Positions 2,591-20,000 of a stretch of 20,000 nucleotides of DNA are shown here, in pieces (position 1 is the stretch's first letter; the number at the start of each line of letters is the position of its first letter). The notes under the pieces are model-generated. The model made no database searches and was not told the DNA's origin. It worked only from the letters and a program-made list of their open reading frames with translations. The DNA is from Asterionella formosa (lineage: Eukaryota). The position numbers and the translations under genes were made by a program. The stretch lies in NCBI GenBank assembly GCA_002256025.1, contig NKIB01012585.1:55471-75470 (forward strand), in the 5' to 3' direction.

Positions 2591-2700
2591 ATGGTACTAC
2601 CGGTAGGTCCTGGAACTACTTGCACATAGCACCAAAAGGTCACGTTCACCCTAATTTATCTGGGTTTGTAGATATTATTAAGCCTTGTTGTTTGAAAGCC

Positions 2701-3186
2701 TTAGGCATTAGTAGGATCCGCACATTCCATGATAGTGAACTTCTTCATTGTTGGCTGTACATTAGCTGTTATGCGATGCCATCCTTGTGCTGCTTTGAAA
2801 GACAACCATATTCGACCAGGTATCGTAACTGGTTTACAGAAAAATCGGGCAATCTTGGCCTCTACCAACGATGCAGTTAGTCTAGTGGGATCAATGTCAG
2901 GAAATTTGCAAAGGATCCGCTGCGCAGCGTTGGAATTTTTCACTGACGCTTCAAAATGCCGAGTTAAACGTAGTACTTGCTTCTGTACAAACGGATGATG
3001 CGTTACGAGGCTTGTTGGCCGAGTCCAGGAAGGCGCTGCCATCGTCGTCATTGTTTGAAAGCAGATAAACCAGGTCGCTGACACTAAAATGGCAGATAAA
3101 GCTGTATGAACCAGTAGGAAAACAGGAATGTCGGCGGGCATCATATCTCGCGCCGCCAAAAAGTTTGTTACATTGGTTCCAATCAT
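2701..3186 (-). CDS. Hypothetical small membrane-associated protein (161 aa), weakly reminiscent of DUF1279/FAM210
   Basis: Open ORF with a hydrophobic segment (VFLLVHTALSAILVSATWFICF) and a C-terminal EAKIARFFCKPVTIPGRIWLS segment; convergent with clpX. Start codon and family are uncertain. Confidence 0.6.
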   Translation of the reverse strand: MIGTNVTNFLAARDMMPADIPVFLLVHTALSAILVSATWFICFQTMTTMAAPSWTRPTSLVTHHPFVQKQVLRLTRHFEASVKNSNAAQRILCKFPDIDPTRLTASLVEAKIARFFCKPVTIPGRIWLSFKAAQGWHRITANVQPTMKKFTIMECADPTNA

Positions 3187-3560
3187 TATTTATCGGGCCG
3201 TCTGTATCAGTCCAAAGAGTGTCTAGATGAGAATTACTCTGGAATACATAGAATGGTGCATCCATAGGCAGTACCGGTAGGGCAGTCTGCTTAACTAATA
3301 AAACGAGCAGTTCAGAATTATTATTAATGGCTGTACATAGACAACTACCGGTACAATTTTTTTTGTATAGATGTAGCTATTGTATATTCTTCCTGATCGG
3401 CATTTTATGACGAAGCGAAAGATCACTCATCCCGTCGCCAAATGTTGTTCGCTGTGTGTAAAACTAGATTGCAAATAGAAATCTCATGCCACACACCGAA
3501 AATAGAATGTAAAATAAAATTCGCTATTTTCAATCCTAACAAACAGCAGCAGGTTATTAT

Positions 3561-3586
3561 TCTCTCTCTCTCTCTATATATATATA
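3561..3586. repeat. Compound microsatellite (TC)7(TA)6
   Basis: tctctctctctctc followed by tatatatatata, read directly. Confidence 0.9.
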
Positions 3587-3684
3587 CATATTTATATAAG
3601 CGACATCCAGCAAATGCATAGAAACGGTTGGTATACATGTTAGATCAAGTTCCATGGAAGCGAGGCACTCCATGCCTTTGGAGG

Positions 3685-4500
3685 TCAAGACTTCGAAGCC
3701 TCTTCATGATCAAGTACCGCTTGCTCACTCCACAAATCAAATTCGCTTTCCTCTAGTATCGGAACACCCGAAGGAGAGACAACCACTGGGAGCGACGTCA
3801 AAGTGCCGAGCTCCTTGCGCATGATTTGTTCGTAGATTCTCCTTGCTTGGCAGTTATGCGCGAACGTCATGTAGTGCCGAAGTTCATTTGATTTGAATGG
3901 CTTCAATTGGCAATCCCGAATTTGGAGTGTAGCCTCTATCAAAGTAGAGCAGAACTCGTCGGAAACTAACGATCTCCCAGGAAGTAATGGAATCTTGGAT
4001 ATTTTCTCAGCAATGACCTCATGGTCGGCGTAGTGATCTACGATGTCCCGAACTGCAAGCCCACCCATGATGACACTCACGGGCAAGAAGAGTAATACAT
4101 TGGTTATCATGGAAAAGAATTTGAAGCTCGTCTCTTCGCCAGGTGGAATGTCAAGAGTATACCAGCTGCCATTACGTGTTCGTGGTGAATGCTGACCTAG
4201 TGCCATTCCAATCCTTGGTATCCTAGAAAAAAGGACAAAAGTGGACAAGGCGATCGCAAGCCCAACGAAGCAAGCTTCGGGTAACACGGAATCATTCATA
4301 ATGATCTCTCTAAGATAACTCCGTTCTCTCGTATAATCACTTTCTTGCATGGTAGTTGTATACTTTTTCCATAGACCCTTTGTCGCGACGACTTTCATGC
4401 AACAGTATATTTTAAGCTTGCGGAGAACCTCCGATTCGCTGGGCATTCCTATTGTTGTTGCTTTGCCATCTTGACCTGTCGGGTGTTTACGAATCGACAT
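3685..4500 (-). CDS. Hypothetical protein with two predicted transmembrane segments (271 aa)
   Basis: 816-bp ORF with hydrophobic stretches ACFVGLAIALSTFVLF and FFSMITNVLLFLPVSVIMGGLAV and a protein-like C-terminal region (IPLLPGRSLVSDEFC...FAHNCQARRIYE). True start uncertain. Confidence 0.75.
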   Translation of the reverse strand: MSIRKHPTGQDGKATTIGMPSESEVLRKLKIYCCMKVVATKGLWKKYTTTMQESDYTRERSYLREIIMNDSVLPEACFVGLAIALSTFVLFSRIPRIGMALGQHSPRTRNGSWYTLDIPPGEETSFKFFSMITNVLLFLPVSVIMGGLAVRDIVDHYADHEVIAEKISKIPLLPGRSLVSDEFCSTLIEATLQIRDCQLKPFKSNELRHYMTFAHNCQARRIYEQIMRKELGTLTSLPVVVSPSGVPILEESEFDLWSEQAVLDHEEASKS

Positions 4501-5164
4501 GCTGTAAATCCTTGAGACTTGATGATGATGATGATGAACTACAGCACAGCACAGGTTGCTCTCCGGTCATCTTGGTCCTTAATGTTTGCTGTGGAAGGAG
4601 ATTTTGGGGGAGAAAGGAGAGCCTTTTTTGTTGTTTTCTTCAATTCTTTTTTTGCAGGTGGAAAGTAGTTTTCGTGCGTGGTGAGTTTACTTTCTAAAAT
4701 CTTTTTTATCATTATTCCTTATTAATTAATTAACAAATGACTTCCTCTCTGAATAATAACATATATTTATTAATAAAGGAAAGTCTCTGACTGTACTTTT
4801 GTACTACGGTATTTGCTAACCTGTACTGTACGCACTTCGGGACAAATCGTCGTCTGGCCGTATGCACGGCCAATCAAAATTGGATGTGCACTTTTTCGGA
4901 GGCACTCTTTTACCTTCTTTGCAGTATTATTTTTTATAGCATCTATAGCTGGTACTGAATATTGTATATTAATAATTTTCATATGGCCATTTACACTTGT
5001 CTGCAATGTACACAGGAGACTCCTCGCTCTACTTTTGTAACAATCATTGCCGACGCCACCAAACGACATTGTCGTTGGATTAATAACTGAGCCTCTAATC
5101 ATTCGCAGTTTTCGCCCCCATCGCCTTCAATTCGCAAATCATAATTTAGATAGGCTGTATCAAT

Positions 5165-5888
5165 ATGGATACTGTTCTTGGAGTTCAATTTGACGGGGGA
5201 GGTGAGTGTTCCACCAGAATCAACGCGGTGTACTCAATTCAGAACTAAACCATGTCGCCGGCATCTGCGGGGTTCCTCTCGTTTGCTCACGGATTTGTGT
5301 GCTCTCCCTCCCTCAAAAGTCATCCTTGCCACTGACCAGACAAATGCTAGATCCATTCTTACATATCAAACCAACTTGGACAAAATCAAGGAGCTGACCT
5401 CCCATTCTGCCATGGGCGTCTCTGGTCCAAACTGCGACATGGTCAACTTTACCGAATTCATTGCCAAGAACATTGCGCTCTATGAGCTTTCCAATGACGG
5501 AACCAAGCTCTCGACTCACGCACAAGCCAACTACGCCAGAAATGAGCTGGCTGTCGCCTTAAGGAAGGGACCTTTCCAGGTCAACGTATTGTTGGGTGGA
5601 TATGACGAAACCACCACCAGTGCCTCGCTCTACTTTTTGGATTACTTTGGTGCCCTTCAAAAAGTCAATTATGGTTGTCAGGGACATGCTGGAAGCTTCT
5701 GTTTGAGTATTATGGACCGAAAGCACAAGGAGGGGTTGTCAGAGGCCGACGCCATGGACATTATTAACGACTGTATCAAGGAAATCCATGTTCGATTCCT
5801 GATCGCGCAGCCAAATTTTATCATCAAGGTCATTGACAAGTCAGGTATTCGAGTGATCAGTTTTGGGGGAGACCCAGCTGATTCGTAA
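5165..5888 (+). CDS. PSMB2: 20S proteasome subunit beta type-2 (beta4/Pre1); exons 5165-5201, 5320-5888 (201 aa)
   Basis: ATG at 5165 gives MDTVLGVQFDGG; GTGAGT donor at 5202 and AAAAG acceptor ending 5319 join to VILATDQ...DKIKEL...NIALYELSN...GPFQVNVLLGGYD...LYFLDYFG, typical of the beta type-2 subunit. Confidence 0.95.
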
Positions 5889-6414
5889 AGTGGAGGGATA
5901 TAGAATAAACGACATCAAAGGTCAAACACTACAAGATAGCAACATACTAACATGGAATTCTGGATCTGGCAGCACTGTGCATAGATGGTGCATGTAAGGT
6001 GTACATCGAACAATTGTTAGTAAGACCATGTTTCCCGGTCTGGTGTTACCTCCACCCTTGTTCTCAAATATAGTGGCTGTAGGCCTGTCATAAGCAGCAA
6101 AAGCAAAAATTATCTATGTACAACATGCACAAATACTGGTCGCGCTCTGAATACCAAATAAATTGTTGTGCAGAAAATATGTTGTGGTACTCCTACAAAT
6201 GTAGCAGTAGGTCTACGTACAATAACGTAGTATGCCCGAATGTTTCTTCACTCCTATGTCTACCGGTACTAACGCTAACAAAACTCCAATAGTTACAGTT
6301 TCTTCTTCGAGCAGTGCTTGATGCTGCTGTTTCTATCCTCTACTTCACCATCAGCAAAGACAGGAAAATCACTCTATTAGATATCTATTGAACAACTTGT
6401 AGAGCGTGATAGTC

Positions 6415-8448
6415 ATGGATCCCAGCAAGGAACTTCCTTTCCTGGAGGCTGCCAGGAATCGCGAGGAACAGATTCAACTGACCAATCGAATATTTCAGTC
6501 TGCACACTTGCATGGTGATGGAACACTACCAGTAGTGGAACATAGAGTTATGCGGCCGTTAACATTGAACGAAATCTCAACTCTTCAAGGACCATGCTTT
6601 TCAAAATGTAAAGATTGGGGGAAATTACGACTCTTGTTGAACCCTGAAGAGTCTCGAATGGATCAGAGCCCCTACCTTCAGCAGATCGTTTCGTTCAATA
6701 ATTTTTCTGGTGTGGTGGTAATTGGAATAAATAGCAAAGAAATATGCGATGGAGAAGCAGATCTACCTGTGGGTATTCACTCCAATGCATTAATTTCCAA
6801 TTGTATCCTTGATGCTGGTTGTCGAGTCTATCGCAACATGTGCATGGTAGATACATATGTGGGTATCGCGGCCTCTGTCTTGAATTGTGGCAAGATTTCA
6901 TGTGGGAAGAATGTTTTATATGGTCATTTGAATATCAGTGTGGGTCCGGAAAGTGGAGGAGGAAGAAATATTACTGTGACAGCCGAAAGCAATATGATTG
7001 ATGTTTGCCAGAAGCTAGGAGTTTCCAAAATATGTACCCCCAGCAATATTCCGCCCACAATGTGTAACATGAATTTCATTGGAGCGGGCTGTATGGTTCG
7101 AGATACACCTACTATCGACAGCGTTTTCTTAGCTTCGACTTCTACAATTGAAGGTGCAACTTCAGTACGTAATTCTGTCTTGCTCCCAACTGCTAAAGTT
7201 GGCAATGCTTGCACTGTTAACAGAGTTATGCTACAATGGAACGCCTCAATCATGGATCACTCTTACATATCAGATACGCTACTAATGGAGCATGCACACG
7301 CCGGTCCAAAAAGCTTAGTTGTAAAAAGCATTCTTGGCCCAGACGTTCATGTTGCCGCAGGTGAAATGCATTCGTCCTTGATTGGACCAAATACAAATGC
7401 GCATCATCAGTCTCTAGTAATTGGAGTCTTATGGCCATTAGGGAGAGGCAACGTTGGATATGGAGCAAACGTTGGATCGAATCATACCGGTCGATTGCCG
7501 GATCAAGAAACTTGCTCAGGCGAAGGGACCTTTTGGGGATTAAGTTGCGTCGTTAAATTCCCAGTTGACCTTTCTTATTCTCCCTACACCATTGTGGCTG
7601 CTGGAACAACAGTCGGACCTCAGCGAATTGCTATGCCGTTTTCTTTGCTCGTTGATATGAATGGTGAAACTCAAATCATCCCCGCATGGTCATTGCAAAG
7701 TTCGCCATATACTTTGACTCGAAATGCGAATAAATACGCTAATCGTCGAAAGGCAACGCACCACAAGTTTTACACGGGATGGGAAATGATTCGACCCGAT
7801 ATTGTTGATATGTGCTGGATAGCTCGAGAGTCCTTGCGAGGAATTTCACAATTGGCGCCAGAGTACAAAACTGAACGAATTGTTCCTGGAATCGGTGGTG
7901 CAACATTGTCAGAAAAGGCGCGCCAATCAGGTATACATGCCTACACTCAATGTATTCAGCGATATGCTCTCGGAGGCTTCTTAGAATGGATTCAAATCAA
8001 CCGGGGTAGCAAACTTCTGCTGAATTTGGAACAGGAATTTCAAGACGTGACTATCAGTGACTCAAACATGGACATTTTGACCAAGCCGTCTTGGCCAATT
8101 CTGCCTTGGGAAGTGGACATGTCAACCACTTGGATCCACCAGAAGTCCATCTTACGATCTGAGTTCCCAATGTGTGGAGATTGGGCCGCGTGGGTTGCTG
8201 ATTTACTCCATGCATGCATGAAAGTTGAGACTGAATACGCAAATGGAGTCTATAAGAGCAAGAAACGCGACGACGTTAGAGGAGTCGATACAATACCTGG
8301 TTACATGGACTCTCATGTTGCAGCAGAAGACGACGAGGTAATCAAGAATGCGAATGAAGCAGCAAAGCGAATAGCAACATTGGCGGAAGACTTGTTAGTG
8401 ACATTGTCAAAATTTGGTGTTTTGAACTCATCTAGGAGTCGACTATGA
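6415..8448 (+). CDS. DUF4954-like protein with hexapeptide/left-handed beta-helix repeats (~677 aa, intronless)
   Basis: Long ORF, first ATG at 6415. Motifs RPLTLNEISTL, repeated I/V-G-x-x-x-x turns and GRGNVGYGANVGSNHTGRLPDQE...GEGTFWGL...KFP, recalled as resembling bacterial DUF4954 proteins. CDS is confident; family assignment is moderate. Confidence 0.8.
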   Translation: MDPSKELPFLEAARNREEQIQLTNRIFQSAHLHGDGTLPVVEHRVMRPLTLNEISTLQGPCFSKCKDWGKLRLLLNPEESRMDQSPYLQQIVSFNNFSGVVVIGINSKEICDGEADLPVGIHSNALISNCILDAGCRVYRNMCMVDTYVGIAASVLNCGKISCGKNVLYGHLNISVGPESGGGRNITVTAESNMIDVCQKLGVSKICTPSNIPPTMCNMNFIGAGCMVRDTPTIDSVFLASTSTIEGATSVRNSVLLPTAKVGNACTVNRVMLQWNASIMDHSYISDTLLMEHAHAGPKSLVVKSILGPDVHVAAGEMHSSLIGPNTNAHHQSLVIGVLWPLGRGNVGYGANVGSNHTGRLPDQETCSGEGTFWGLSCVVKFPVDLSYSPYTIVAAGTTVGPQRIAMPFSLLVDMNGETQIIPAWSLQSSPYTLTRNANKYANRRKATHHKFYTGWEMIRPDIVDMCWIARESLRGISQLAPEYKTERIVPGIGGATLSEKARQSGIHAYTQCIQRYALGGFLEWIQINRGSKLLLNLEQEFQDVTISDSNMDILTKPSWPILPWEVDMSTTWIHQKSILRSEFPMCGDWAAWVADLLHACMKVETEYANGVYKSKKRDDVRGVDTIPGYMDSHVAAEDDEVIKNANEAAKRIATLAEDLLVTLSKFGVLNSSRSRL

Positions 8449-8581
8449 ATACCAGGGAGAATATACTCTAATTTATTTTTAAAAATCACTGCTAAATAAA
8501 ACTCTTTCGAAGGGACCATCTCGCGAGCGATCGGAAAGAATGAAATCAGTAATTTGCAAATGATTATCCCAGTCTGCAAAT

Positions 8582-9618
8582 CTACACAGTCAACAAGTCG
8601 TCAAGTGCCATTTCTTCCTGTATACCTCCTCCGCATATAATTTCCCCATCATCGCCCACGGTCAACCCGTCCTCGGCCGTCGAATACAAGATTTTAAAGA
8701 CTTTATCGACCATGTGTGCTGGATTGGATTCTTCTCCTTGCTCCTGGTGGACCTGAATGATCACTTCAACGTCCCGCAATTTCTCAAAGTAGAAGTCACG
8801 TTCCGTCTCAACCTCCTTCAATGTGGCGTCCAATTCTGCTAACTTAGCATTCAATTCGGCATTTTTCTTCATGAGATTGGCATCTGCTAAAACAGCATCA
8901 GTGATTGGATCCAAGTTTCCAACTTTAGTTTTGTTTTCTTGCAGCGTACGACTCGTGGTATACACAGGGGGTGCAGATCGAGCAGGCGGTCGAGTAGCCG
9001 TGGCTCGGGCAGATAGATGAGCTGGTGCACTTCGTCGGGGTCCACTAGATGTTGGAATTGGCTTTGAGTTATAGTTGGAACTTGTCATTCCTAGAAACTG
9101 ATTAACCGTTTTGGCTCCCTTGCCCTTGGCACGAGCTGCCACAGGATCGTAATCTGGACGATAGCACCCAGACTGGTCAAAGAAGGCCTTCAGCCACTGA
9201 CAGAATTCAAGATTGTCTTGATACTTAGCCTTGATGAGCTTGGGTACATCTACATATCTTTGCACGTTGTGAATTTTAAAGGCGGCCTGAAGTAGTTTGT
9301 AGTTTTGGACAAATTCATATTCCGATTTCGCTTCCCAATTGACTTTGGCCATGGGAATGCTTCCGGGGTAAATGTACTCTGTAATCTGGCACGCCACGGC
9401 TCCTGACGCAGTCTGTTCAATTTTTGCGAGATTAAGGGCTAAGAGGTCGTTGAAGCAATCCAGAAGTTCTTTGCGACCGGTGAAATACGCAGCATCCATC
9501 ATGCCTGCATTTGCGGAATGAACGCAACGAATCGCGGGGATGAGTCGAGGATTTTGTGGAATTCTACCGCGTTTTGCCCTGAATACTCACCAACAGCGGA
9601 ATCCCCATTTCTACTCAT
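8582..9618 (-). CDS. EB1: Microtubule plus-end binding protein EB1 (RP/EB family); exons 9618-9591, 9504-8582 (316 aa)
   Basis: CH domain (AYFTGRKELL...NYKLLQAAF...KAKYQDNLEFCQWLK), coiled coil and EBH motif (ETERDFYFEKLRDVE...KILY). Intron 9590-9505 (GTGAGT...GCAG) gives the N-terminus MSRNGDSAVGMMDAAYF. Confidence 0.96.
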
Positions 9619-10786
9619 GGTGCTTGCTTGTTTGGATATGTCAGAGTAAGGCAATGACAATTGAGATCTAAACCGTCCTGGTACTGGAAGTCGATGACTC
9701 TGAAAGAAGTTGTGCAGCCGATGGATCTTAACAGTGTGTTCAACGAGGCACAACGGCTTGCCAACGATCAATTTGAACTTTGAAATGAAGTTATGCCGAA
9801 ATATGATATTTACCGGTTTATTATGATATGAATATTTTCAGTATTCATACTGGAAGACAAATATATATATATCACTGGTGCCAGGGGGTACGACCCAGTA
9901 CAGCCTATGTGCTGGAGGATACGCAAGCAAAGGTCCGGCAATCGAGAGAATTAGCTTAATCTTTTCTAAAGTTAAAAAGTGTTTTATTACCGGACCTTCC
10001 CAGCAGAATGTAGAACTCCTTTTTCAACTTTTTAACCCCAAGCAAGTACCGATACATCGGTACATACAAATGAGTAAATCCCTTACGGTACCCGGTACCG
10101 GTATTCCAAGCTGCATACGCGTACTAACTGGTACCACCTAAAAACTGAGAGTCATACAAACTTTCAGTTTTGTGCTGATAGTCATAACAAAACGGGGTAA
10201 TCACACGGTTTGAGACGAATATTTGTAATATTATAAATCTGTATTAGACGAAGTTCTTCCTGTGCATATAAGGAACAGCATTATTCGTACTTGAAGACTG
10301 CAATCTCGTACCACCAGTTCTTTAGTTATAATAGCCCAAAATTGGCTGTCGACGGTTTTTGGTCCAAATCAGTTTTACCCCAATGAGCCTGCATGACTTT
10401 TTCAACACATAGGAGAAGCTGAAGCTTTATAAATAATTAGCTTGTTTCAAGACTTTTCCGCATCATTACTATGGCATGTTTGCGCCATTGCAATTAAGTT
10501 GTGCGCCATAGTAACTCGTTTATTTAGAGTTGTTTAAGTGCTGGTGCGCCAATAAATAAATATTATAACCTAGTGGTACCTGGTAATGGCATGATAGACT
10601 AGTACTAGTAAACCAGCACTGCGGCTGGTATACATGACATAAAAACAAGCCTACAAATCCAACTTGTAAGTCTCATAATATACAATTATTTGCGGAGTCA
10701 TCGCTGAGACACTATAGTAATCATGTTGGCAGACCAAGGAATGCTAACTCCTCATGAAACGGAAATTGAGCAGCTAAACCTCAACA

Positions 10787-13663
10787 ATGTGCGTAATTCG
10801 AGAGTTAGAAGCTATCAAGGCTAACAACGGAGGTAAAATGCCATATGGCACTACTTCTAAAGTGGTGGAGGCTAGGAAAAGATTGCTCCCATGGCTATCA
10901 ATTAACCATGTCAAGTACCAGATGAAAAAGCCCAATGCTTGCAATAGAACCATACATGATGGAATTGATTCATCAACTTGCCCAAATGCGAAATCCTATA
11001 TCTGTCAGTGATGGTCGTCGACTTGCCAACTCCCTAATATCTGGAACTAAAATAGGAGTCAGCATCAATTCATGGAGACAAACTCATTCTTCTGCATACC
11101 GATCTAATAAAATTCCGAAACTTGGAATGGGTTACTGGAGAGGGTTCATGAAAAGGAGCAAATAGTGACCGCTAAACGAGTGTCAAATTTGAAAGCAAGC
11201 GAGCCGATTGGTGCACTTACAATAATTTTAAAGCAATGAATGAGCAAGTGTACAAGGAGATGGTTGCGGGAGGGATTAATGTTAAATTCCAAAAATAAGG
11301 AATGGTTGAATAAAGAAGGAGTAGTGGTACTTGAGGAAAAGGATGCATTGGGACTCCAGACAAAGTATAATTTGATTTGTCCTGACCGGATGCTTTTTGT
11401 TGAAAAGGTGGGATCAAACACATCTCCAACTAAAGATGGCAATGTGGGGGGAGAGTTATTCCTCTGTGGAGAGGGTGAGCAACCACAGCAAAGATCGGCA
11501 CATAAAGATGCACACTTTACCGTTCTTGGGTTTACAGCTGCGAATGGGAATCCAATTATGTGTGCCATCATTTTTGGGTCCATTACACTTTTTGCATAAA
11601 AGTGTCCGAAAATGCATAATGAATTAGTCGGGGGAACTTGGGGTTACTTTTTTGACTAAATTTGTAGCAAATCAATAATTATTTTTATCAATGATAGAAA
11701 CGTTTCCTAACTAAGTTTTCAATGTCTCTTTTTACTTAGTATATTGAAAATCGAAAATTAAAAATATATTTGTACTACTGCACATTTTGTCAAGAAATCG
11801 GATGCATAATGTATTAGATTTACTTACGTTTTCGACATGGAACACATCACACATGCAACAGACCTTGTATATACTTTGTACATTCCGTATATAGCGTTAC
11901 ATATTACCGGTATATATGTTTGGCATACATACTACTCGTTATGTACTACCAGTACTTGCATGTGTGTTTGTACAGCTGTCTGTGGTATTGGGTCGATGAG
12001 ACCACAGCAACTCCATCTTGACAATGACGAAATTATGGAGTTGAATATCTTTACGAATATTGACAATGAGCAATTCCCATTTTGCACGTGTATGTGCACT
12101 AACATAGACGAGATTATTTTTGCACTACTAGTATTGACAACAAAAAGTTGAAAGCGGCGCTGGAAGTTGTTTCTGGTCGTCATTTGCTCAGTTTTGAAGA
12201 TATGACCAAAGTAGCGACAGTTTTGAGTTCGCCATGATTAGCTTGATAACTTTAAATAGATAAGGTTTTCTATGTTTTGTAGAAAAAGATGAGAAACTTG
12301 AGCAACAGTATTCTCGGAGAGGGAACAAGCAACATTTCAAGATGCAAGAAAATCCTCTACGTCAATTTTGTAGTGAGTTTCACGTACACACTAATTGTTG
12401 TGGCTCATATTTCTAAGGAATCTTGATAAGGTCATTTGACAGTCTAATATAGACATATTTTCAGCCATTGAACAGGACACTGCTTGTTCTTTACGCGAAT
12501 AAAAACTTTGCATCGCGGAAATGATCATGAAATCCCCTGACTGTCGGTTTATGCATTTTCTGACACTTTTATGCAAAAAATGTATTCTTTCATCATTTTT
12601 GCTGAAGACTCTCGAAGATGAATGGGTCCACTTGGTCTTGATCCATTTGCAGAGTGGGTGGGAGATGAAAACAACTTGTTAGCAAACAGTTGAAAGAACA
12701 AAAGGTACATGCAAGGGCCAGTGTGCACACCAGTTGATGGAGTCAACTTACCTACTTGTGTTGTCCCTCTGAAAATGGAAGTATGAACAAAACGGTTGCT
12801 ACAAGATGGCCATTACAAAGCGAAGCGCGAAATACTCACCAAGAAAGCGGACCATCGTCAGGAATTCTCACTCAATAAAGTTGACATTGTCGGAATAGTA
12901 AGCACTGCATGGGATGAATCATTTGGTCAAGTTACCTCCAACAGGACTGCAATTGCCAACCGAGGATGGGGCCCACTCAACTAAAATGTTCTTAATCACT
13001 CTGAAATCCAACTTACAAAGATAACATTGCAAAACGGCACCCAAAACAACAACACTGCAAATGCTACTTCTCCCCAAGAATTAAATCTGTCAGATGGATA
13101 TGCTGGCACTCTTGATGACCGTGTTGTTGAATACAGGAATCGTGAAGATGCTCGAAATGGAATCGACCTTGATTCCCAAGCCCGTCAACACAAGGAAACT
13201 GCCCAAGCCCTTCTCGATTCCGACAAGAAAAGAATCTCTGCCGGCCTATTGGCATCTGCTGGCATTCATGCTCTTGGACCAAATGTGCTTGCATCTGCAA
13301 TGTTGAAATAATAGAAAGGCAGAGGAAGTGGTTACTGAGCGTCAAAACAGAAGGCAGCATGAATTTATGAAGCTACAGAACAAGTTTATGGCTCTAGGCG
13401 CAGCCAACAAGCCTGAGCATATGCTGTCAGTTCCTGAAATTAAGATCCTTGTGCGATGGTTTCAATGCAATGGAGATTTCCCAGCACTACAAACAAGACA
13501 AGCCCTACTTACCCGCTTGGGAGAGACTTCACACCAAGGAGACCAGCAGGCGCCAGCAGAAGAGATCACAACTGTTGTGGTTCTTGCTGCAAGTCCCATC
13601 CCCCCTATTCTCCCCCCTTGGCCTGCAGATGACAATTGTGCTGACACACAAGGAGGAAATTGA
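10787..13663 (+). pseudogene. Fragmented transposase (CENP-B/Tc5-like HTH plus DDE-like domain) with frameshifts, stops, apparent deletions and a nested insertion
   Basis: Collinear pieces in different frames: IEPYMMELIHQLAQMRNPISVSDGRRLANSLISGT, LGMGYWRGFMKR, DWCTYNNF, MLFVEKVGSNT (degenerate D-E), HFTVLGFTAANGNPIMCAIIF; after the insert GLDPFAEWVGDE, QGPVCT, ENGS, AWDESF...AIANRGWGPLN. Confidence 0.82.
11577..12591. mobile_element. Nested non-autonomous TIR element (~1015 bp, MULE/MITE-like) inside the transposase
   Basis: 36-bp inverted repeats 11584-11619 and 12549-12584 (34/36). Flanking direct repeat CATCATTTTTG at 11566-11576 and 12591-12601, implying a 9-11 bp TSD, so ends are uncertain by 1 bp. 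AT-rich non-coding interior; transposase text resumes right after it. Confidence 0.9.
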
Positions 13664-15104
13664 CATTCCAGCCGCACTGCCTTGCATGCTTCGGGCGAGG
13701 AAGAATATGATGGGTGGCTGAGAGGAGGAATATGAAGGAAGCGACGAGACAAGGAGGAGGCGAAAGCGGAGCGTGGTGGAGGCAATGGTGGAGAAGCAAA
13801 CAAGCAATCAATCAAAAAATTCTCGCTTGGCTGACATCTGTCATAGTAGTAATACCAACAAACCAGTAGCCTGATGTAATCAGAACACTAATTAGTGACG
13901 AATGTAAATAATCCCTATATAAATCTATATCAAACCATCATCAAAACGAACAAAAGTAAGATTATTGACACAAAAACTGAAATAATATTTGAGTTAAAAG
14001 GCAAACTCATTATTATTTAAGGTTAAAAACAATGAAAACAATTAATAATAAATGAGTAGATGATGCAACAGGCAAATAATATTGTGGTAGTAAAAAGCTT
14101 TAGAGTGAACAAAAGGGTAATCGAAACCAGAATTTGAATATAAAATTGTCTTCAGGTACGTAGTAAAAAATATGCATGTCATACAAAATGACCAAAATCA
14201 TCAACTCTAAAAACTTCATATCTCTTGAATTATGAAGCTTCATTACTAATTAAACAGACCTATTGAAGGCGGAGAGCCTGTTCTACATTTAGCTACGTAC
14301 TTGATTTGTTGTCACCATGAAATTTGACTAAAATAGTTTGAGTCGAAACATGGGGTAAACTTTATATGACTCTCAGTTTTTAAGTGGCACTCCTTGGATA
14401 CTTGGTACTGGTACCTGGGGTACTACCAGGTACCGGTATGAGAGCGTGGTACATCGAAGTCGACTCATTCGAACATGAGTCATAACTACGTACCGGTAGA
14501 TGAGCTCATTCTAACATACCGTAACCCTGCACTGACACCTTCACCCTAACCCTCCCAACCCTAAAGAAAGTTTAGCCACCTTACATCCCCAAGTCTAAGT
14601 CCAATTCGAATTCCAACCAACGAACAAACGGTTTCGTGCTGGTGTTCTAATGGAATGATTACCGACATAATTGTTCAATGAGCTCTTTTGGTTAGTTAGG
14701 GTTGTCCTTTGTCAGCCTATTTCCACAGAAACCTATTGCTTTGGCAAAACAAAACATCAACTCATCTTCGTTTCGACCTTCAACTTGAAGGTTTCAACTT
14801 GAAGGATGTCATCAAGGTAATGGTTGACACACCGACCAATGCAAAGCCAGTATTGATCAACTTGCCAACAGTCACCTTGACAACATCGTAATTGCTGACA
14901 GCCTTCTTGGCGGCAAGGCTTTCTTTTCAGTTTTCAGGTTGGAGGTCACAATCACCACAGAAGACATGTTCTCTAAGCAATTTCATTTCAGTGCTGCCAG
15001 CAAACCAAAATCAAATTACTTCTTAACTTTCCTTAATTATACTGTTTCACAACATCAATTCAGCATTCACCATTTCTCTACCCCACTATGCTTTGAGTCT
15101 TACA

Positions 15105-15106
<2 letters not shown>

Positions 15107-15136
<30 letters not shown>
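15107..15136. repeat. (CA)15 microsatellite in the 3' flank of the 15146-16591 gene
   Basis: Perfect CA run read directly, 9 bp beyond the stop codon of the minus-strand gene. Confidence 0.95.
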
Positions 15137-15140
<4 letters not shown>

Positions 15141-15145
15141 AACTA

Positions 15146-16591
15146 TCAACTCGACAACAACGGCTGAACCGACACCCCACTTATTTCTGCACTTTCCAAT
15201 ATGTTGACACCAGCCCCACTTGCATGTTCACCATGCTCCACTAGCACACGCAACTTTGCCATGCTTGCCAACACTTGGTCCATGTGCCCATCTATGCTGG
15301 GCTTAAAACATCGTTGGAACATAGAACAGATGCCGCATAAAAAAAGCGCGGACGAGGAAGAGGACAGTGATGGCTCTCGTGCAACGCGGACTTTATCCGT
15401 AATAGACGTGATTCCTTGATAATCAGATACTTCAAATGTATGAAATACAGTTAATCCTCCAGCAAATGGCCCAATCGTGAGCGACACTTGACCTCTATGG
15501 CGTTCTACAAACATGTTAACCTTTCCCCACAAGGGAAAACCCATATACGTTCGTATATTGTGTACAGAGGTGGCCAGGTAACCTCCTTTGACTGGAGATA
15601 CTAGTGTTGATGTTGATGCTTCTACCCATTCTCCATCGTACTGTACATGGAAGTGTGGGGCTGAGGGTGAGATATGAAACATCCATGCAACCTGCAATTC
15701 ACAAAGGTCATTTACCGCGCGGTTACCACCTTCATCTCGCCGATTGATGGCACTCTTCGCGCCATCACTACTCCTAGTCACCACTAACGTTTGCACTGAA
15801 TCACACCATAATTGCAGCAAATCCGGATTTCCCAGAACAAGCAAAACCTCACTCGTCGTTGCCTCTACTTGCATGGATATTTGAAAATTTTCTTCCCCTG
15901 CTAAATCTATTTGGATGCCTCGACTGAGAAGTCGAGACACTCGAAACGACCGATCAAGCGGGCTGTCTTGGCAAAGCCAAGAATGATTAGTTTCTCCTGG
16001 TGCCAAGGTCGACAGCACCCTCTCTTGCTGGGAACGTTCCCGTAGGACAGACAACCTATCTCCGCTTTGACATTGACTCTGATCATCGGCTGCTCGCATA
16101 AGCTCAGAAAACCCCATCGATCGAGCAAACGAGTCCGAATTTTTCGGATGCAAATGAAAGGTTGCCGTTTCTGAAACAAGATAGGACTTTATGCTTTCAA
16201 TTCGATATGCGGCCAGCAGTGAGGAAGCTTCAAATTCGATATTCTGCGATTCTTGCGACATATTGTTCAGACTAGTCAAATCTAATACATTTTCCATCGG
16301 ACTGTCGAAGAACGACGACCCTTGGGCCGTCTGTTCGGTCGCAGCAGTCATCAAAGAAGAATCATTAGGAGATGTCAAAGAATGTTTTACGAAGCTCGGA
16401 CCTATTGTATTTATATCAACTTGTGATTGTTGTGGAGACTGGAAAACGAACTTATCTTGGCTCTCCGGAGAGTTTCCTGAAGTTGCAAAAGGAAGTGCAT
16501 CATCTACACTGGAACAAGCACTGTGTTCATCACGATCATCATCATGGTCATCATCATGGTCATCATCATCGATATCAAAGTATGACGACAT
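15146..16591 (-). CDS. Hypothetical protein with an acidic disordered N-terminus and possible SRPBCC/START-like C-terminal domain; probable intron 15715-15641 (~456 aa spliced)
   Basis: 481-codon ORF starting with a D/H repeat. EVLLVLGNPDLLQLWCD followed by beta-rich segments and a final amphipathic helix fits a helix-grip fold (inference). Contains a 75-nt GTAAAT...TACAG in-frame intron candidate. Confidence 0.8.
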   Translation of the reverse strand: MSSYFDIDDDDHDDDHDDDRDEHSACSSVDDALPFATSGNSPESQDKFVFQSPQQSQVDINTIGPSFVKHSLTSPNDSSLMTAATEQTAQGSSFFDSPMENVLDLTSLNNMSQESQNIEFEASSLLAAYRIESIKSYLVSETATFHLHPKNSDSFARSMGFSELMRAADDQSQCQSGDRLSVLRERSQQERVLSTLAPGETNHSWLCQDSPLDRSFRVSRLLSRGIQIDLAGEENFQISMQVEATTSEVLLVLGNPDLLQLWCDSVQTLVVTRSSDGAKSAINRRDEGGNRAVNDLCELQVAWMFHISPSAPHFHVQYDGEWVEASTSTLVSPVKGGYLATSVHNIRTYMGFPLWGKVNMFVERHRGQVSLTIGPFAGGLTVFHTFEVSDYQGITSITDKVRVAREPSLSSSSSALFLCGICSMFQRCFKPSIDGHMDQVLASMAKLRVLVEHGEHASGAGVNILESAEISGVSVQPLLSS

Positions 16592-18211
16592 GGTGCGTGA
16601 GCATGTGCTTTCTGTGTGCTTGGTAATTTCGGAGTTATTGTTTATGGCGATGAGTTAACTCAGCCAAAACAAAATATTCATTCTGGCAGGGGGTTGAAGC
16701 ATGACACCACCAATTAGAAATACTGTAGATGATGGAACAGAATTGGAATATCATACCTGGTAACCGGTACCAGATACAAGGTACCAGGTACCAGGTAGCA
16801 CAGCCAACATGCCGCATGACATTTAGCATAGGACTCATGTAAGGGGATAGGTACCATGTACCACATACCAGGAACCTGGTAACATTACCTGGTACCTGGT
16901 ACAACTGTTACTGGGGTAGACTTCGTATCCTTCTTGTGTACCATTGTACCTGCTGCGGAGTACCAGTACTCCTATGGACGGTTTGTACCGTATACCGGTA
17001 CTGTAGTTAGCTACCCGTTACTACGTCAGCAGTCGCAGTCCACAATTCACACCCACGTATACACGAATGAACAAAACTTTCGTTCTCTTTACTCCTGTCG
17101 TTTCTGTGCATACGTGAGGAATGTAAGAATCAATTTTTGTTCCAAGTTCTCTTATTTTTGTTTAGGCCGACAGATCAACCTGTCTGTATGTAAGAAAAGA
17201 AACAAGGCAGGCGGAGGTGGACAGAATTCCAAAATCCGGGCTGCTTAGTCTTGGTAAGTGCAGAGGCACCCGGTTGGTACGCCACAGCCATAATTTCATG
17301 ATATGAATGATTGTCGTTACATCACACCAACAAAAAGAAGAAGTGGTGAGAAAAGACTGTTCGTACTACAGCGCATGCCCTTCCTCGAACACTTTGAGTA
17401 CCGGTGGAATCATTGCAGACAAATTGGCCAGAGTCACTCATTTTCTTGATGCATCACACAATTCTTGCCTTCAGTGATGCAAAGACAATCTTGAGTCATC
17501 ATAGAGAATCCATACCTCTGACTATTATTTTTTTGAGACGATCCTTGAATGACTTTTGACACTCGAAGTAAGTTAAAACTGATGTTAAGCACATTTCAGT
17601 TCTTGATCAATAATTGAACCGCACATGTGCATACAAAAACATGGTAGTAGATTTCTGATTAGACTTTGCTTTTCAATTCAAAGTGAATTATCTAAATAGA
17701 AGTTCGAGTAGTCGATAAATATATTAATGTATCTGTTAGTCAATATATCCAGATAAACATCTTTTGATCAATCATTTTATCATAAATAACATATCAAGTT
17801 CTGATACAAAAACGGGTATATCAAACCGAAACACCCTCCCATAGACCCACCATACCGGTACTCTGCTAAAAGACTCTAAACCGGTACCATTCCATCATCT
17901 ATCACACTACTCCGGAGTACGTACCATGTACCGCTGGTACCAGTACCTACATAGCCCACTGAGCTTGCCTACCAGGCGACGTATGTTCATAATTTGAAAT
18001 TAGCAATGGAAGTGGCAATATATAGCTTACCGTAGTTAGTCTAGCTAGATGTGTTGACAATGAACACATTAGATCAATTTGGAATCAAAGCAGCTTCATT
18101 GCCCTCGAAAAAACAACGGGGTCACTGATTGGCATCGCGATCCAATATTCAAGTCGCATGTTAAAAACATTTATAAGTGAAGCTCTTTGTTTCAAAAAAC
18201 ATACCCTCCCG

Positions 18212-19402
18212 TTAGATATGGAGTACGTAAGGCTCATTCATACTCTCAAACAACGCCAAGACTGTTTCCAGTTCCACGACTGAGTTTTGTTCTTTTAAGC
18301 AACTCGCTGATCCACATGCCAAACCAAAGGCGAACGATGCCACCATTGTTCGCGTTGCCACATTTTCAGATAGCCCTTTGGTCACGATGTTAAGTCGTTT
18401 CTTCAAGCTCAACATTGTCGTTTCATCGAGCAATTTGCTCTCTGGATCTTCCAGGGATCTCCATGCTGCCAGTGTTCCCGCAGCAACGGAGTCTCCTGCT
18501 CCAATCGGATAAAGCGTTTTGCTTTTATCCAATATGGGCGGGTCCATCCGGAAGATTTCAGGTTTCTCTTCGATAGCACCATTCAAGGCCACAAAATGCG
18601 CTGCATATTTGCCATCTGTGATGGCCAATCCGGCCAAGGCCTTAGGAGAAAATTCTTTCAAAAATTGATCGACTGCCATTCCAAGCTCGCCTGGTGAAAT
18701 TCCCTCGGCTTCACTGCTGCTTTTCGGGGCCTTCGCGAGTCGACAAAGTTCGGAGGCATTAATTTTTAAAATTACAGGACCTCGATCTTCAATTCCAGAA
18801 ATAGTGCTCAGTAGTGGACTCAATCCATCGACAGAATCGATCACACAAAGGACTCGCTTCGAACACAGTTTCTCATAAATGCCTCCATATATGTCTTTTG
18901 GACACCCTGGTGGAATCGATCCCATAAAACAAATGGCAGCCGTGAGACTAGCCTTTGCTACTAACTGATTCATAAACTCTGTTTGTTCTTCATCTTCAAT
19001 GATGCCACTTGGTTCGACTAGTTCAGTCGACGCATCCGATGCCACAATTGTAGTACACGTTCTCATTTGACTCTTTGTTCGCACAGTCAATGCACTAGCT
19101 CCTTCAACTCCAAGCTTTTCCCGCAGAATTTCCATGACAGTATTTCCTTCAGGGTCATTTCCTACAAATTGAGCTAATCGTGTATCTCCGTAGCCCAAAC
19201 AACTTAAGGTGATGCAGACGTCCTGACCCTTGCCACCAACGCCCGTTTGAACCTCCGCGGCTCGATGAACATTGCCAGGCACCAGTTTGTTATCTGGTGT
19301 CAGGACGAAGCGCTTCTGGAGAGCCCCATTCAAACCAACAACAACGGTGTAGGCGCTAATTGAGGACATAATCAGGGAATGACACACGAGAAGGATCAGC
19401 AT
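18212..19402 (-). CDS. PfkB/ribokinase-family carbohydrate kinase (1-phosphofructokinase/tagatose-6-phosphate kinase-like)
   Basis: VVGLNGALQK, GVGGKGQDV, RTCTTI, TELVEP, GSIPPG, LKINASEL, ITDG and PIGAGDS signature motifs; intronless. Alternative start ATG at 19369. Confidence 0.92.
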   Translation of the reverse strand: MLILLVCHSLIMSSISAYTVVVGLNGALQKRFVLTPDNKLVPGNVHRAAEVQTGVGGKGQDVCITLSCLGYGDTRLAQFVGNDPEGNTVMEILREKLGVEGASALTVRTKSQMRTCTTIVASDASTELVEPSGIIEDEEQTEFMNQLVAKASLTAAICFMGSIPPGCPKDIYGGIYEKLCSKRVLCVIDSVDGLSPLLSTISGIEDRGPVILKINASELCRLAKAPKSSSEAEGISPGELGMAVDQFLKEFSPKALAGLAITDGKYAAHFVALNGAIEEKPEIFRMDPPILDKSKTLYPIGAGDSVAAGTLAAWRSLEDPESKLLDETTMLSLKKRLNIVTKGLSENVATRTMVASFAFGLACGSASCLKEQNSVVELETVLALFESMNEPYVLHI

Positions 19403-19879
19403 TGCCTATTATGAAAGAATATCTCTGAGAGTCTATACATAGAATGAGGAAGACAAAAAAAAAAAAAAAAGATACGAAGATTTGTTCATCTGTCTTGGTA
19501 CGACCAGGTGCTGAGTACTCCGAGTACCAGGTAGGATACCGATACCTGGGAGATTCCCAGAACCCATTGTGCGCCACATGGTGCAGCTAAAAAGGAGCAA
19601 GTTGCGGTAATTGTGCTGAAACTAAAACTTTAGCTATATTAATCCTATCTAAAATTGTTTATTTAAGGTTCCTGCATTTGAACCCCTAGCTCGAGGTAGG
19701 GTTAAAAAAAGAATATTGAGTCAGAGTAGTCAAACATAGACTTCTTACGAGTAAAACGTAAATGTATATCCCTAAACGGAGCTTTCACCAATACACACCC
19801 TTTCCACATGCTTAAATACAGTCATTTATCAAAGTAGGGGTATAGGTCAACGCTATATATCGTCAGGATATAGGATCTG

Positions 19880-20000
19880 GCGAGAAACTGCAGAAAGGAA
19901 CTTCGGTTTTTTAACTATGCTGAAAATAGTGGATTTTACCGGGCAAACTCGTTTATTTGGCCTAGTAAAAAAACCGAAGTTCCTTTCTGCAGTTCCTCGC
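19880..20000. repeat. Long inverted repeat / MITE-like foldback element, truncated by the window end
   Basis: GCGAGAAACTGCAGAAAGGAACTTCGGTTTTTTAACTA (19880-19917) matches the reverse complement of 19963-20000 at 36/38; 45-bp spacer. Confidence 0.88.

Follow-up and report, generated by a model that had tools for sequence, protein, structure and literature searches.

The question raised by a 20,000-nt stretch of the Asterionella formosa genome (contig NKIB01012585.1 of GenBank assembly GCA_002256025.1, forward-strand positions 55,471 to 75,470; hereafter, the window) is where the short palindromic words that crowd its non-coding DNA come from. The words are the octamer TACCGGTA and its relatives with one extra central base, TACCWGGTA (W, A or T), and they share the window with a member of a high-copy DNA transposon family, here called the resident element (Table 1). 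The original prediction, made from the letters of the window, was that the words are scars left by excision of such elements and that intergenic DNA may partly be built by repeated cut-and-paste cycles. Based on the analyses described below, we give a probability of roughly 45% to the words being by-products of this resident, high-copy family of Tc1/mariner/pogo-type cut-and-paste transposons. The composition of the words, the spectrum of their variants, and their association with the ends of the element speak for excision scars; no polymorphism between TA, footprint, and element states was found, which speaks against them. Intergenic DNA built in part by such cycles would account for the arrays and clusters of words.

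TACCGGTA occurs 10 times in the window compared to 0.13 expected copies, and TACCWGGTA 8 times compared to 0.10; none of 200 dinucleotide-preserving shuffles reached 10 copies of the former or 8 copies of the latter. These are the 10 and 8 copies that the original prediction had reported, each at the position given for it. Its statement that all of them lie outside the real coding sequences (CDSs) also holds: in a gene map made from Pfam matches, open reading frames (ORFs), and introns read by eye, 16 of the 18 sites map to unique non-coding DNA, two (10577 and 11905) to transposon DNA, and none to a CDS. The variant words said to accompany them are all present as well (Table 1), one of them in coding DNA. 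TACCGGTA is the commonest palindromic octamer in the window and the only enriched one among the 16 palindromes of the form TA-xy-y'x'-TA, with 10 copies versus 5 for TATATATA and 0 to 2 for the others. Moreover, T precedes 13 and A follows 12 of the 16 ACCGGT hexamers in the window.

The gene map assigns 9,742 nt of the window to CDSs, 5,601 nt to unique non-coding DNA, and 4,657 nt to transposons, and in these three classes GTAC occurs at 2.4, 10.5, and 3.4 copies per kb, respectively. In the unique non-coding DNA, CC follows 11.8% and GG precedes 10.4% of all TAs, both roughly double the rates found in coding or transposon DNA. The words sit inside broader clusters rich in GGTAC and GTACC and are thus the crest of a wider GTAC-type compositional bias. 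They are found 3' as well as 5' of genes, with 2598 and 17853 as clearly 3' sites, and twice within transposons.

The resident element begins with CCACC and ends with GTGG; it is preceded by TA (10132-10133) and followed by CA (14388-14389). A repeat search identified inverted repeats of 34 nt that are 88% complementary (10131-10164 and 14357-14390), and this search together with other copies confirms the predicted ends, i.e., TA-CCA...TGG-(T)A. The depth of its interior in three DNA data sets is ~100-500x that of unique DNA (70,000-450,000 versus ~900), and deletion derivatives (10608 to 13434) occur also in RNA contigs. One such expressed derivative, an X9 contig, covers 10499-10608 with 0 gaps and contains the TACCTGGTA word at 10577, which is therefore probably part of the family consensus.

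Stops and a second, nested transposon interrupt the transposase frame of the resident element. Using a 119-residue piece of it (window 11240-11599), we identified 21 longer relatives of 251-1025 residues (P0001-P0021) among 116 candidates, including some of intact length such as P0001 and P0002. No Pfam domain was found in these 21 relatives. Fifteen of them align with the conserved blocks FVDEVG, LDGHGS, and QVGDSxEQNG; of the candidate residues for an acidic catalytic triad, only the first D is in an invariant column. Searches of Pfam (including DDE_1, Transposase_1, and DDE_3) with seven ORF pieces and these 15 relatives gave no match at E up to 1, and a sequence profile search of the PDB with the relatives matched no chain. 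An AlphaFold model of P0002 based on the 15 aligned sequences had a predicted local distance difference test score (pLDDT) of 69.8 and gave weak Foldseek matches, the best being to Mos1 (E 7.4e-3). Upon structural re-alignment of the model, 11 Tc1/mariner entries were at the top, among them Mos1 (Z 11.9; root mean square deviation 3.4, 194/201 residues), Metnase (Z 11.6), and Sleeping Beauty (Z 10.7), and retroviral integrases scored 8.7 or less, i.e., two to three units lower. Atlas neighbors with an assigned family are pogo-type DDE_1 clusters (scores 0.86-0.88, which are language-model leads only). Because of the Tc1/mariner-like fold of the modeled transposase, with which the TA flanks are consistent, we place the element, as a divergent member, within or close to the Tc1/mariner/pogo group. 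The transposase family, which so far is found in diatom-labelled clusters and among unnamed metagenome proteins, seems to be undescribed in profile libraries. A CACTA-type element with a 3-bp duplication was considered and rejected: the bases before the end read alike inward at both kinds of ends, which fits a palindromic TA.

Scanning metagenome contigs with an 18-nt element end, we obtained 17 loci, of which 6 are true copies of the element and 11 are unrelated chance matches. The true copies represent five further insertion sites, i.e., one site present in two samples (L008 and L017) as well as L010, L013, L014, and L016. These insertions start with TA-CCACC except for L013, which starts with TA-CCCCC. 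Together with the left end in the window and an end at one contig joint, TA precedes CCACC or CCCCC in seven of the eight ends. The window copy is the only one for which both flanks are visible, and its right flank is CA. Among seven independent ends, identity is complete inward from TA-CC and falls off outside. Directly ahead of the TA, G occupies the two positions in 6/7 and 7/7 of these ends, with a weaker C-W further out.

Several of the flanks carry a word that touches the element and shares its TA, i.e., TACCCCTGGTA, TACCGGTAGGTA, TACCAGGTA, TACCTGGTA, and TACCCTGGTACCAGGTA in the metagenome copies and TAACTGGTA in the window; no such word is found at the right end in the window or at the contig-joint end (17703 to 10131). 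Counting eight independent ends, one of which derives from the contig joint, a CC(W)GG-TA word abuts four of them compared to 5.2% of the non-coding TA sides in the window (P = 4e-4), and GG lies before the TA in six of them compared to 11% of non-coding TAs (P = 4e-5). As a control for composition, the 11 unrelated loci contained 0 motif words in 8,921 nt, compared to 3 words in 1,912 nt of true flanks. The central base of the word beside the element is A in two ends and T in three, as expected of a palindromic scar in either orientation, which argues against the word being a constant outer segment of the inverted repeat. Thus, the element and the words are physically linked. We note that the 20-nt element end had no match among the genome contigs searched, that the alignment of the transposase had none among the genome or viral contigs searched, and that the pfkB-like protein, used to look for the orthologous locus, had none among the metagenome contigs searched.

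If the words were made by excision, the steps might be as follows. The element would insert at TA with ends that read CCA...TGG; a staggered cut during excision would leave the duplicated TA together with the outermost two or three bases at either end; and end-joining would produce TA-CC-GG-TA, TA-CCA-GG-TA, and TA-CC-TGG-TA as well as shorter and longer relatives. If the element also landed preferentially at a TA preceded by GG, i.e., at GG-TA-CC, each scar would make new preferred targets, cycles at one spot would pile scars into clusters and 7-bp arrays, and selection would clear scars from coding DNA. Such a doubling of targets per scar would explain the clusters, the arrays, and the near-identical arrays elsewhere in the genome. 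Published precedents exist for parts of this scheme. When Tc1/mariner elements excise, 2-4 of their first or last bases stay behind between the TAs, as in the Sleeping Beauty footprints TACAGTA and TACTGTA, and the junctions formed depend on the repair system (PMC6943129). In rice, diverse footprints have been described (PMC4423477), and Stowaway is documented to have inserted and excised repeatedly at a single site in intron 4 of the Triticeae beta-amylase gene (PMC1925063).

The words can be written as TA + CC(A) + (T)GG + TA, in which the inner bases match the end bases of the element. When a footprint grammar was applied to all 64 possible 3-nt ends, CCA accounted for the most words (27), followed by CCT (24), while the next unrelated end accounted for 17; CCT, CCG, and CCC share many of the words of CCA under this grammar. 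Most telling for an origin as scars is the spectrum of variants in the unique non-coding DNA. Here, the core word occurs nine times and its 24 substitution neighbors together also nine times, while the two central A/T insertions occur seven times, central C/G insertions once, and the two central deletions five times. Changes in central length dominate over substitutions, the inserted base is mainly A or T, matching the third base of the element, and the TAs are intact. Variable spacing between fixed TAs is as expected when end-joining acts on overhangs of CC(A) and (T)GG and unlike a dimer site with strict spacing.

Several observations weigh against excision as the source of the words. Among contigs of other populations, no site was found in alternative TA, footprint, and element states. 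Footprint indels were not seen where alignments bound the sites: there are at most three gap letters over 5074-10154 in X2 and one over 5142-6895 in X6, and 6261 is therefore unchanged in both and 10084-10103 in X2, at a divergence of only about 0.3-0.8% in these comparisons. Contigs of these populations nevertheless carry many gap letters relative to the window, for example a net change of -6 with one substitution over 1768-2770 in X6 and of +7 with 0 substitutions over 4795-5065 in X2; the listed indels, which are the best-supported ones, are all inside the high-copy element. No scar-like indel was present in ~2.1 kb of aligned interior of five element copies that are 2.6-4% divergent, and the full CCA+TGG scar, TACCATGGTA, is absent from the window. 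Part of the count (16754-16797 and 16886-16902) lies in 7-bp tandem arrays that were possibly grown by slippage. The nearest sites are located 148, 155, and 163 nt upstream of the start codons at 6416, 19370, and 16591, respectively, and the site at 3346 lies 160 nt upstream of a fourth start if the ORF 2701-3186 is real. Three or four sites at 148-163 nt from starts hint at positional constraint, which is weak evidence because start codons and transcript starts are unmapped. The association between ends and words is equally expected if the element merely prefers pre-existing GG-TA-CC. Moreover, the analysis covers a single 20-kb window and six short metagenome loci, not a whole genome. Finally, TACCGGTA is identical to an oomycete promoter motif (PMC3597505, PMC10031896), and a footprint origin was dismissed in oomycetes for its sister motif TACATGTA (PMC3520976).

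The last point leads to an alternative in which the palindrome is a dimeric transcription factor site conserved in stramenopiles (oomycete M94 / motif-9) and the transposon lands in open promoters. Among the palindromes over-represented in promoters of Phytophthora infestans, TACCGGTA (M94) and TACATGTA (M93) are classed as "high-confidence" motifs (PMC3597505), and the motif ATACCGGTAT / GTACCGGTA is reported upstream of 206 genes in Plasmopara halstedii (PMC10031896). For TACATGTA, Seidl et al. proposed an Irx-type homeodomain factor; they pointed to taCATGta as a Tc1 footprint in Caenorhabditis elegans and dismissed such an origin of the Phytophthora motif based on its conservation and abundance (PMC3520976). 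A factor site would also fit the distances from the three start codons, the unchanged sequence at 6261 and 10084-10103 in the other populations that cover them, and the intergenic location of 16/16 non-transposon sites. It fits poorly with half-sites that are spaced by 0, 1, 2, or more bases and also by -1, with an extra base that is A or T in agreement with the third base of the transposon, and with locations such as that of 2598, 9 nt past a stop in a convergent gap, or of 17853, 250 nt past a stop and >1.2 kb from the next start. Head-to-tail arrays of six units, with dozens of near-identical arrays elsewhere in the genome, would be unusual for such a site, and the match between the inner bases of the motif and the terminal bases of the element would be a coincidence. 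On balance, we consider a conserved factor site unlikely.

The arrays themselves suggest another alternative, namely, that the words are a low-complexity 7-bp minisatellite (TACCWGG) that expands and decays through replication slippage and is targeted by the transposon at GG-TA-CC, in which case they are targets and not scars. Tandem Repeats Finder (TRF) identified two arrays in inverted orientation in the densest cluster, at 16754-16797 (6.3 copies, 78% matches) and 16886-16902 (2.4 copies), and they attract alignments from numerous contigs of other genomic regions: the bin 16676-17342 has ~40x unique depth, and 29 X2 contigs diverge after 16797. The GG before the TA in six of eight element ends, with the weaker C-W further out, would then be a palindrome-like target consensus. 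A GC-rich extended target of this kind is unusual for Tc1/mariner elements. Moreover, most of the 18 sites are single isolated words; the TRF arrays contain only 5 of them (16754, 16782, 16789, 16886, and 16893) and 13 lie outside any such array. Within the clusters, 4-7 nt separate successive intact TAs and only 2 of 13 neighboring unit pairs are identical (read by eye), which is unlike slippage. That the unit consists of TA plus the element's own end bases is left unexplained by this alternative, which we regard as distinctly improbable.

Very improbable, finally, is that the words are what remains of degraded inverted-repeat termini of transposons, be it solo ends or subterminal repeats, as could be suggested by the GGTACC runs joined directly to the high-copy repeat at 19597-19664 in other copies, by the two words inside transposons, which are probably family consensus (10577 in the X9 copy), and by the lack of a high-depth 6-nt gap at 11905 among the indels listed: the terminal and subterminal 400 nt of the element are nearly free of GTAC words, the identity of the seven ends starts sharply at TA-CC with an outside that varies in length and in its central A/T, and the isolated sites have no extended similarity around them. 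The variant of subterminal repeats was ruled out by the scarcity of GTAC words inside the element relative to unique non-coding DNA.

Table 1. Words, clusters, transposons, and genes in the 20,000-nt window
Feature	Coordinates	Strand	Remarks
Isolated TACCGGTA	2598..2605		9 nt past ClpX-like stop, 3' non-coding
Two isolated TACCGGTA	3272, 3346 (3272..3353)		Between 3' end of minus-strand gene 3685-4500 and putative ORF 2701-3186
Isolated TACCGGTA	6261..6268		148 nt upstream of DUF4954 ATG 6416
Left-flank cluster	10047..10133		Palindrome GTACCGATAC-ATCGGTAC, then TACGGTACCCGGTACCGGTA (10084-10103), then TAACTGGTA (10125-10133)
TACCTGGTA inside resident element	10577..10585		
Right-flank cluster	14388..14523		TACTTGGTACTGGTACCTGGGGTACTACCAGGTACCGGTA (from 14400), TACGTACCGGTA (14487-14498), TACCGTA (14517)
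Densest cluster	16754..17006		163-402 nt upstream of ATG 16591 (minus-strand ORF 15146-16591); in addition to the 7-bp arrays, holds TACCATGTACCACATACCAGG, TACCAGTA, TACCGTATACCGGTA
Cluster	17853..17960		250-360 nt downstream of pfkB-like stop; TACCGGTA (17853), AACCGGTACC, TACGTACCATGTACCGCTGGTACCAGTACC
Cluster	19488..19556		~120-185 nt upstream of pfkB-like ATG 19370; includes TACCAGGTA (19525)
Variant TACGGTA	4805, 10084		
Variant TACCGTA	14517, 16986, 18028		
Variant TACTGGTA	14406		
Variant TACCAGTA	6527, 11947, 16961, 17938		6527 copy inside DUF4954 coding sequence
Resident DNA transposon	10134..14387	plus	4,254 bp; broken transposase frame; high-copy family
Nested second transposon (MITE, miniature inverted-repeat transposable element)	11577..12590		52-nt inverted repeats, 83% complementary
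Very high-copy MITE-like repeat	19597..20000		41-nt inverted repeats 19880-19920 / 19960-20000, 93%
ClpX-like gene	164-2589	plus	Stop 2587-2589; three introns read by eye
Putative ORF	2701-3186	minus	
Gene	3685-4500	minus	
Proteasome beta subunit gene	5165-5888		
DUF4954 / hexapeptide-repeat gene	6416-8448		ATG at 6416
EB1 homologue	8582 to about 9620	minus	
ORF with His/Asp-rich N-terminus	15146-16591	minus	ATG at 16591
pfkB-family kinase gene	18212-19370	minus	ATG at 19370

The final TA of TAACTGGTA (10132-10133) is the target-site TA of the resident element, and the two clusters that flank the element were one cluster until the element landed in it. The left-flank cluster also contains a perfect small palindrome, GTACCGAT-AC-ATCGGTAC, at 10047-10064, and a second TACCGATA word is present in another cluster at 19541-19548; these words might have been left as scars by another CC-ended family or represent a longer retained end. 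The cluster at 19488..19556 ends ~45 nt before the very high-copy repeat, within which the window ends. The bin 19344-20000 has >1000x unique depth, and the repeat has several nested boundaries with loose ends at 19597, 19663, 19693, and 19926. Elsewhere in the genome, this repeat adjoins GGTACC-type arrays directly (joints 16792/16795/16804 to 19597-19664). The nested second transposon belongs to a high-copy family of ~1 kb, contains TACCGGTA at 11905, and is flanked by an 11-bp target duplication, CATCATTTTTG, at 11566-11576 and 12591-12601, the length of which suggests that it is Mutator-like. Contigs with the corresponding empty site (joint 11576 to 12605) were found in X1, X2, and X9.

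The window is short-intron eukaryotic nuclear DNA and contains, in addition to the five Pfam-assigned genes, three ORFs without a Pfam family. Public sequencing runs that contain the locus are freshwater, lake, and algae metagenomes. The nearest Atlas cluster of the DUF4954 protein is mostly diatom-labelled, and its remaining Atlas neighbors are nearly all bacterial (Planctomycetota, Spirochaetota, and Bacteroidota); this DUF4954 / left-handed beta-helix gene is a candidate for an ancient acquisition by diatoms from bacteria. Microsatellites, (CA)n and (TC)n(TA)n, and a 12-nt coding repeat are present at 15102-15140, 3561-3598, and 16527-16577, and are probably the source of part of the indels between strains; the 12-nt repeat encodes the His/Asp-rich N-terminus of the ORF 15146-16591. 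Metatranscriptome contigs end at 14574, ~570 nt past the stop of this ORF and 50 nt before the motif cluster, and at 19385, 15 nt upstream of the pfkB ATG. These positions are only a hint at RNA ends, which the end of a contig does not establish.

Should the words be scars, cut-and-paste transposons would contribute substantially to the short-sequence content of compact intergenic DNA in protists, minisatellite-like arrays included, and would do more than cause occasional indels. This would reopen the reading of the abundant palindromic "promoter motifs" of oomycete pathogens, for which an origin as footprints was dismissed untested, and motif-discovery studies would then need to compare over-represented TA-flanked palindromes with the ends of resident transposons that target TA. 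A more far-reaching version, which we regard as possible yet doubtful, is that a pogo-like transposon writes its own preferred GG-TA-CC target upon excision and in this way seeds words and arrays across intergenic DNA, and that the stramenopile promoter palindromes TACCGGTA and TACATGTA (Phytophthora and Plasmopara) are scars in origin, perhaps co-opted later. If the words are instead factor sites targeted by the transposon, this would be one of the few instances in which a Tc1/mariner/pogo element targets a specific sequence, and it would point to a regulatory word conserved between diatoms and oomycetes. Among the matches listed in our literature searches, there was no description of the octamer or of mariner-like footprints in diatoms. 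Excision footprints as such are known biology; footprints as a dominant non-coding word that builds arrays would be new.

In known cases, footprints are individual and rare events. If the present words are scars, they would constitute the most over-represented non-coding octamer and form arrays. The resemblance to the footprints of Tc1/mariner elements, including those of Sleeping Beauty and the taCATGta of Tc1, is that TAs enclose 2-4 end bases at heterogeneous junctions (PMC6943129, PMC3520976). In contrast to Sleeping Beauty, the two 3-nt overhangs expected for the present element cannot pair, and the 8- and 9-mers would therefore need trimming or fill-in. Stowaway MITEs provide a precedent for a Tc1/mariner-type element that reuses one TA site and leaves several distinct footprints; that case concerns a single locus across species, with neither array build-up nor genome-wide enrichment of a motif (PMC1925063). 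With pogo/Tigger (DDE_1) and mariner elements, the resident element shares the fold of the catalytic domain in the modeled relative, the TA target, and short terminal inverted repeats, and it differs from them in that its relatives have no sequence match in Pfam or the PDB. The oomycete motifs M94 and M93 are similar in that the octamer is identical, in that they are over-represented upstream of genes, and in that the host is also a stramenopile (PMC3597505, PMC10031896, PMC3520976). There, M94 / motif-9 and M93 / motif-1 are read as homodimeric factor sites tied to stage-specific expression; unlike these motifs, the words described here are linked to transposon ends, come in length variants and arrays, and lie also 3' of genes.

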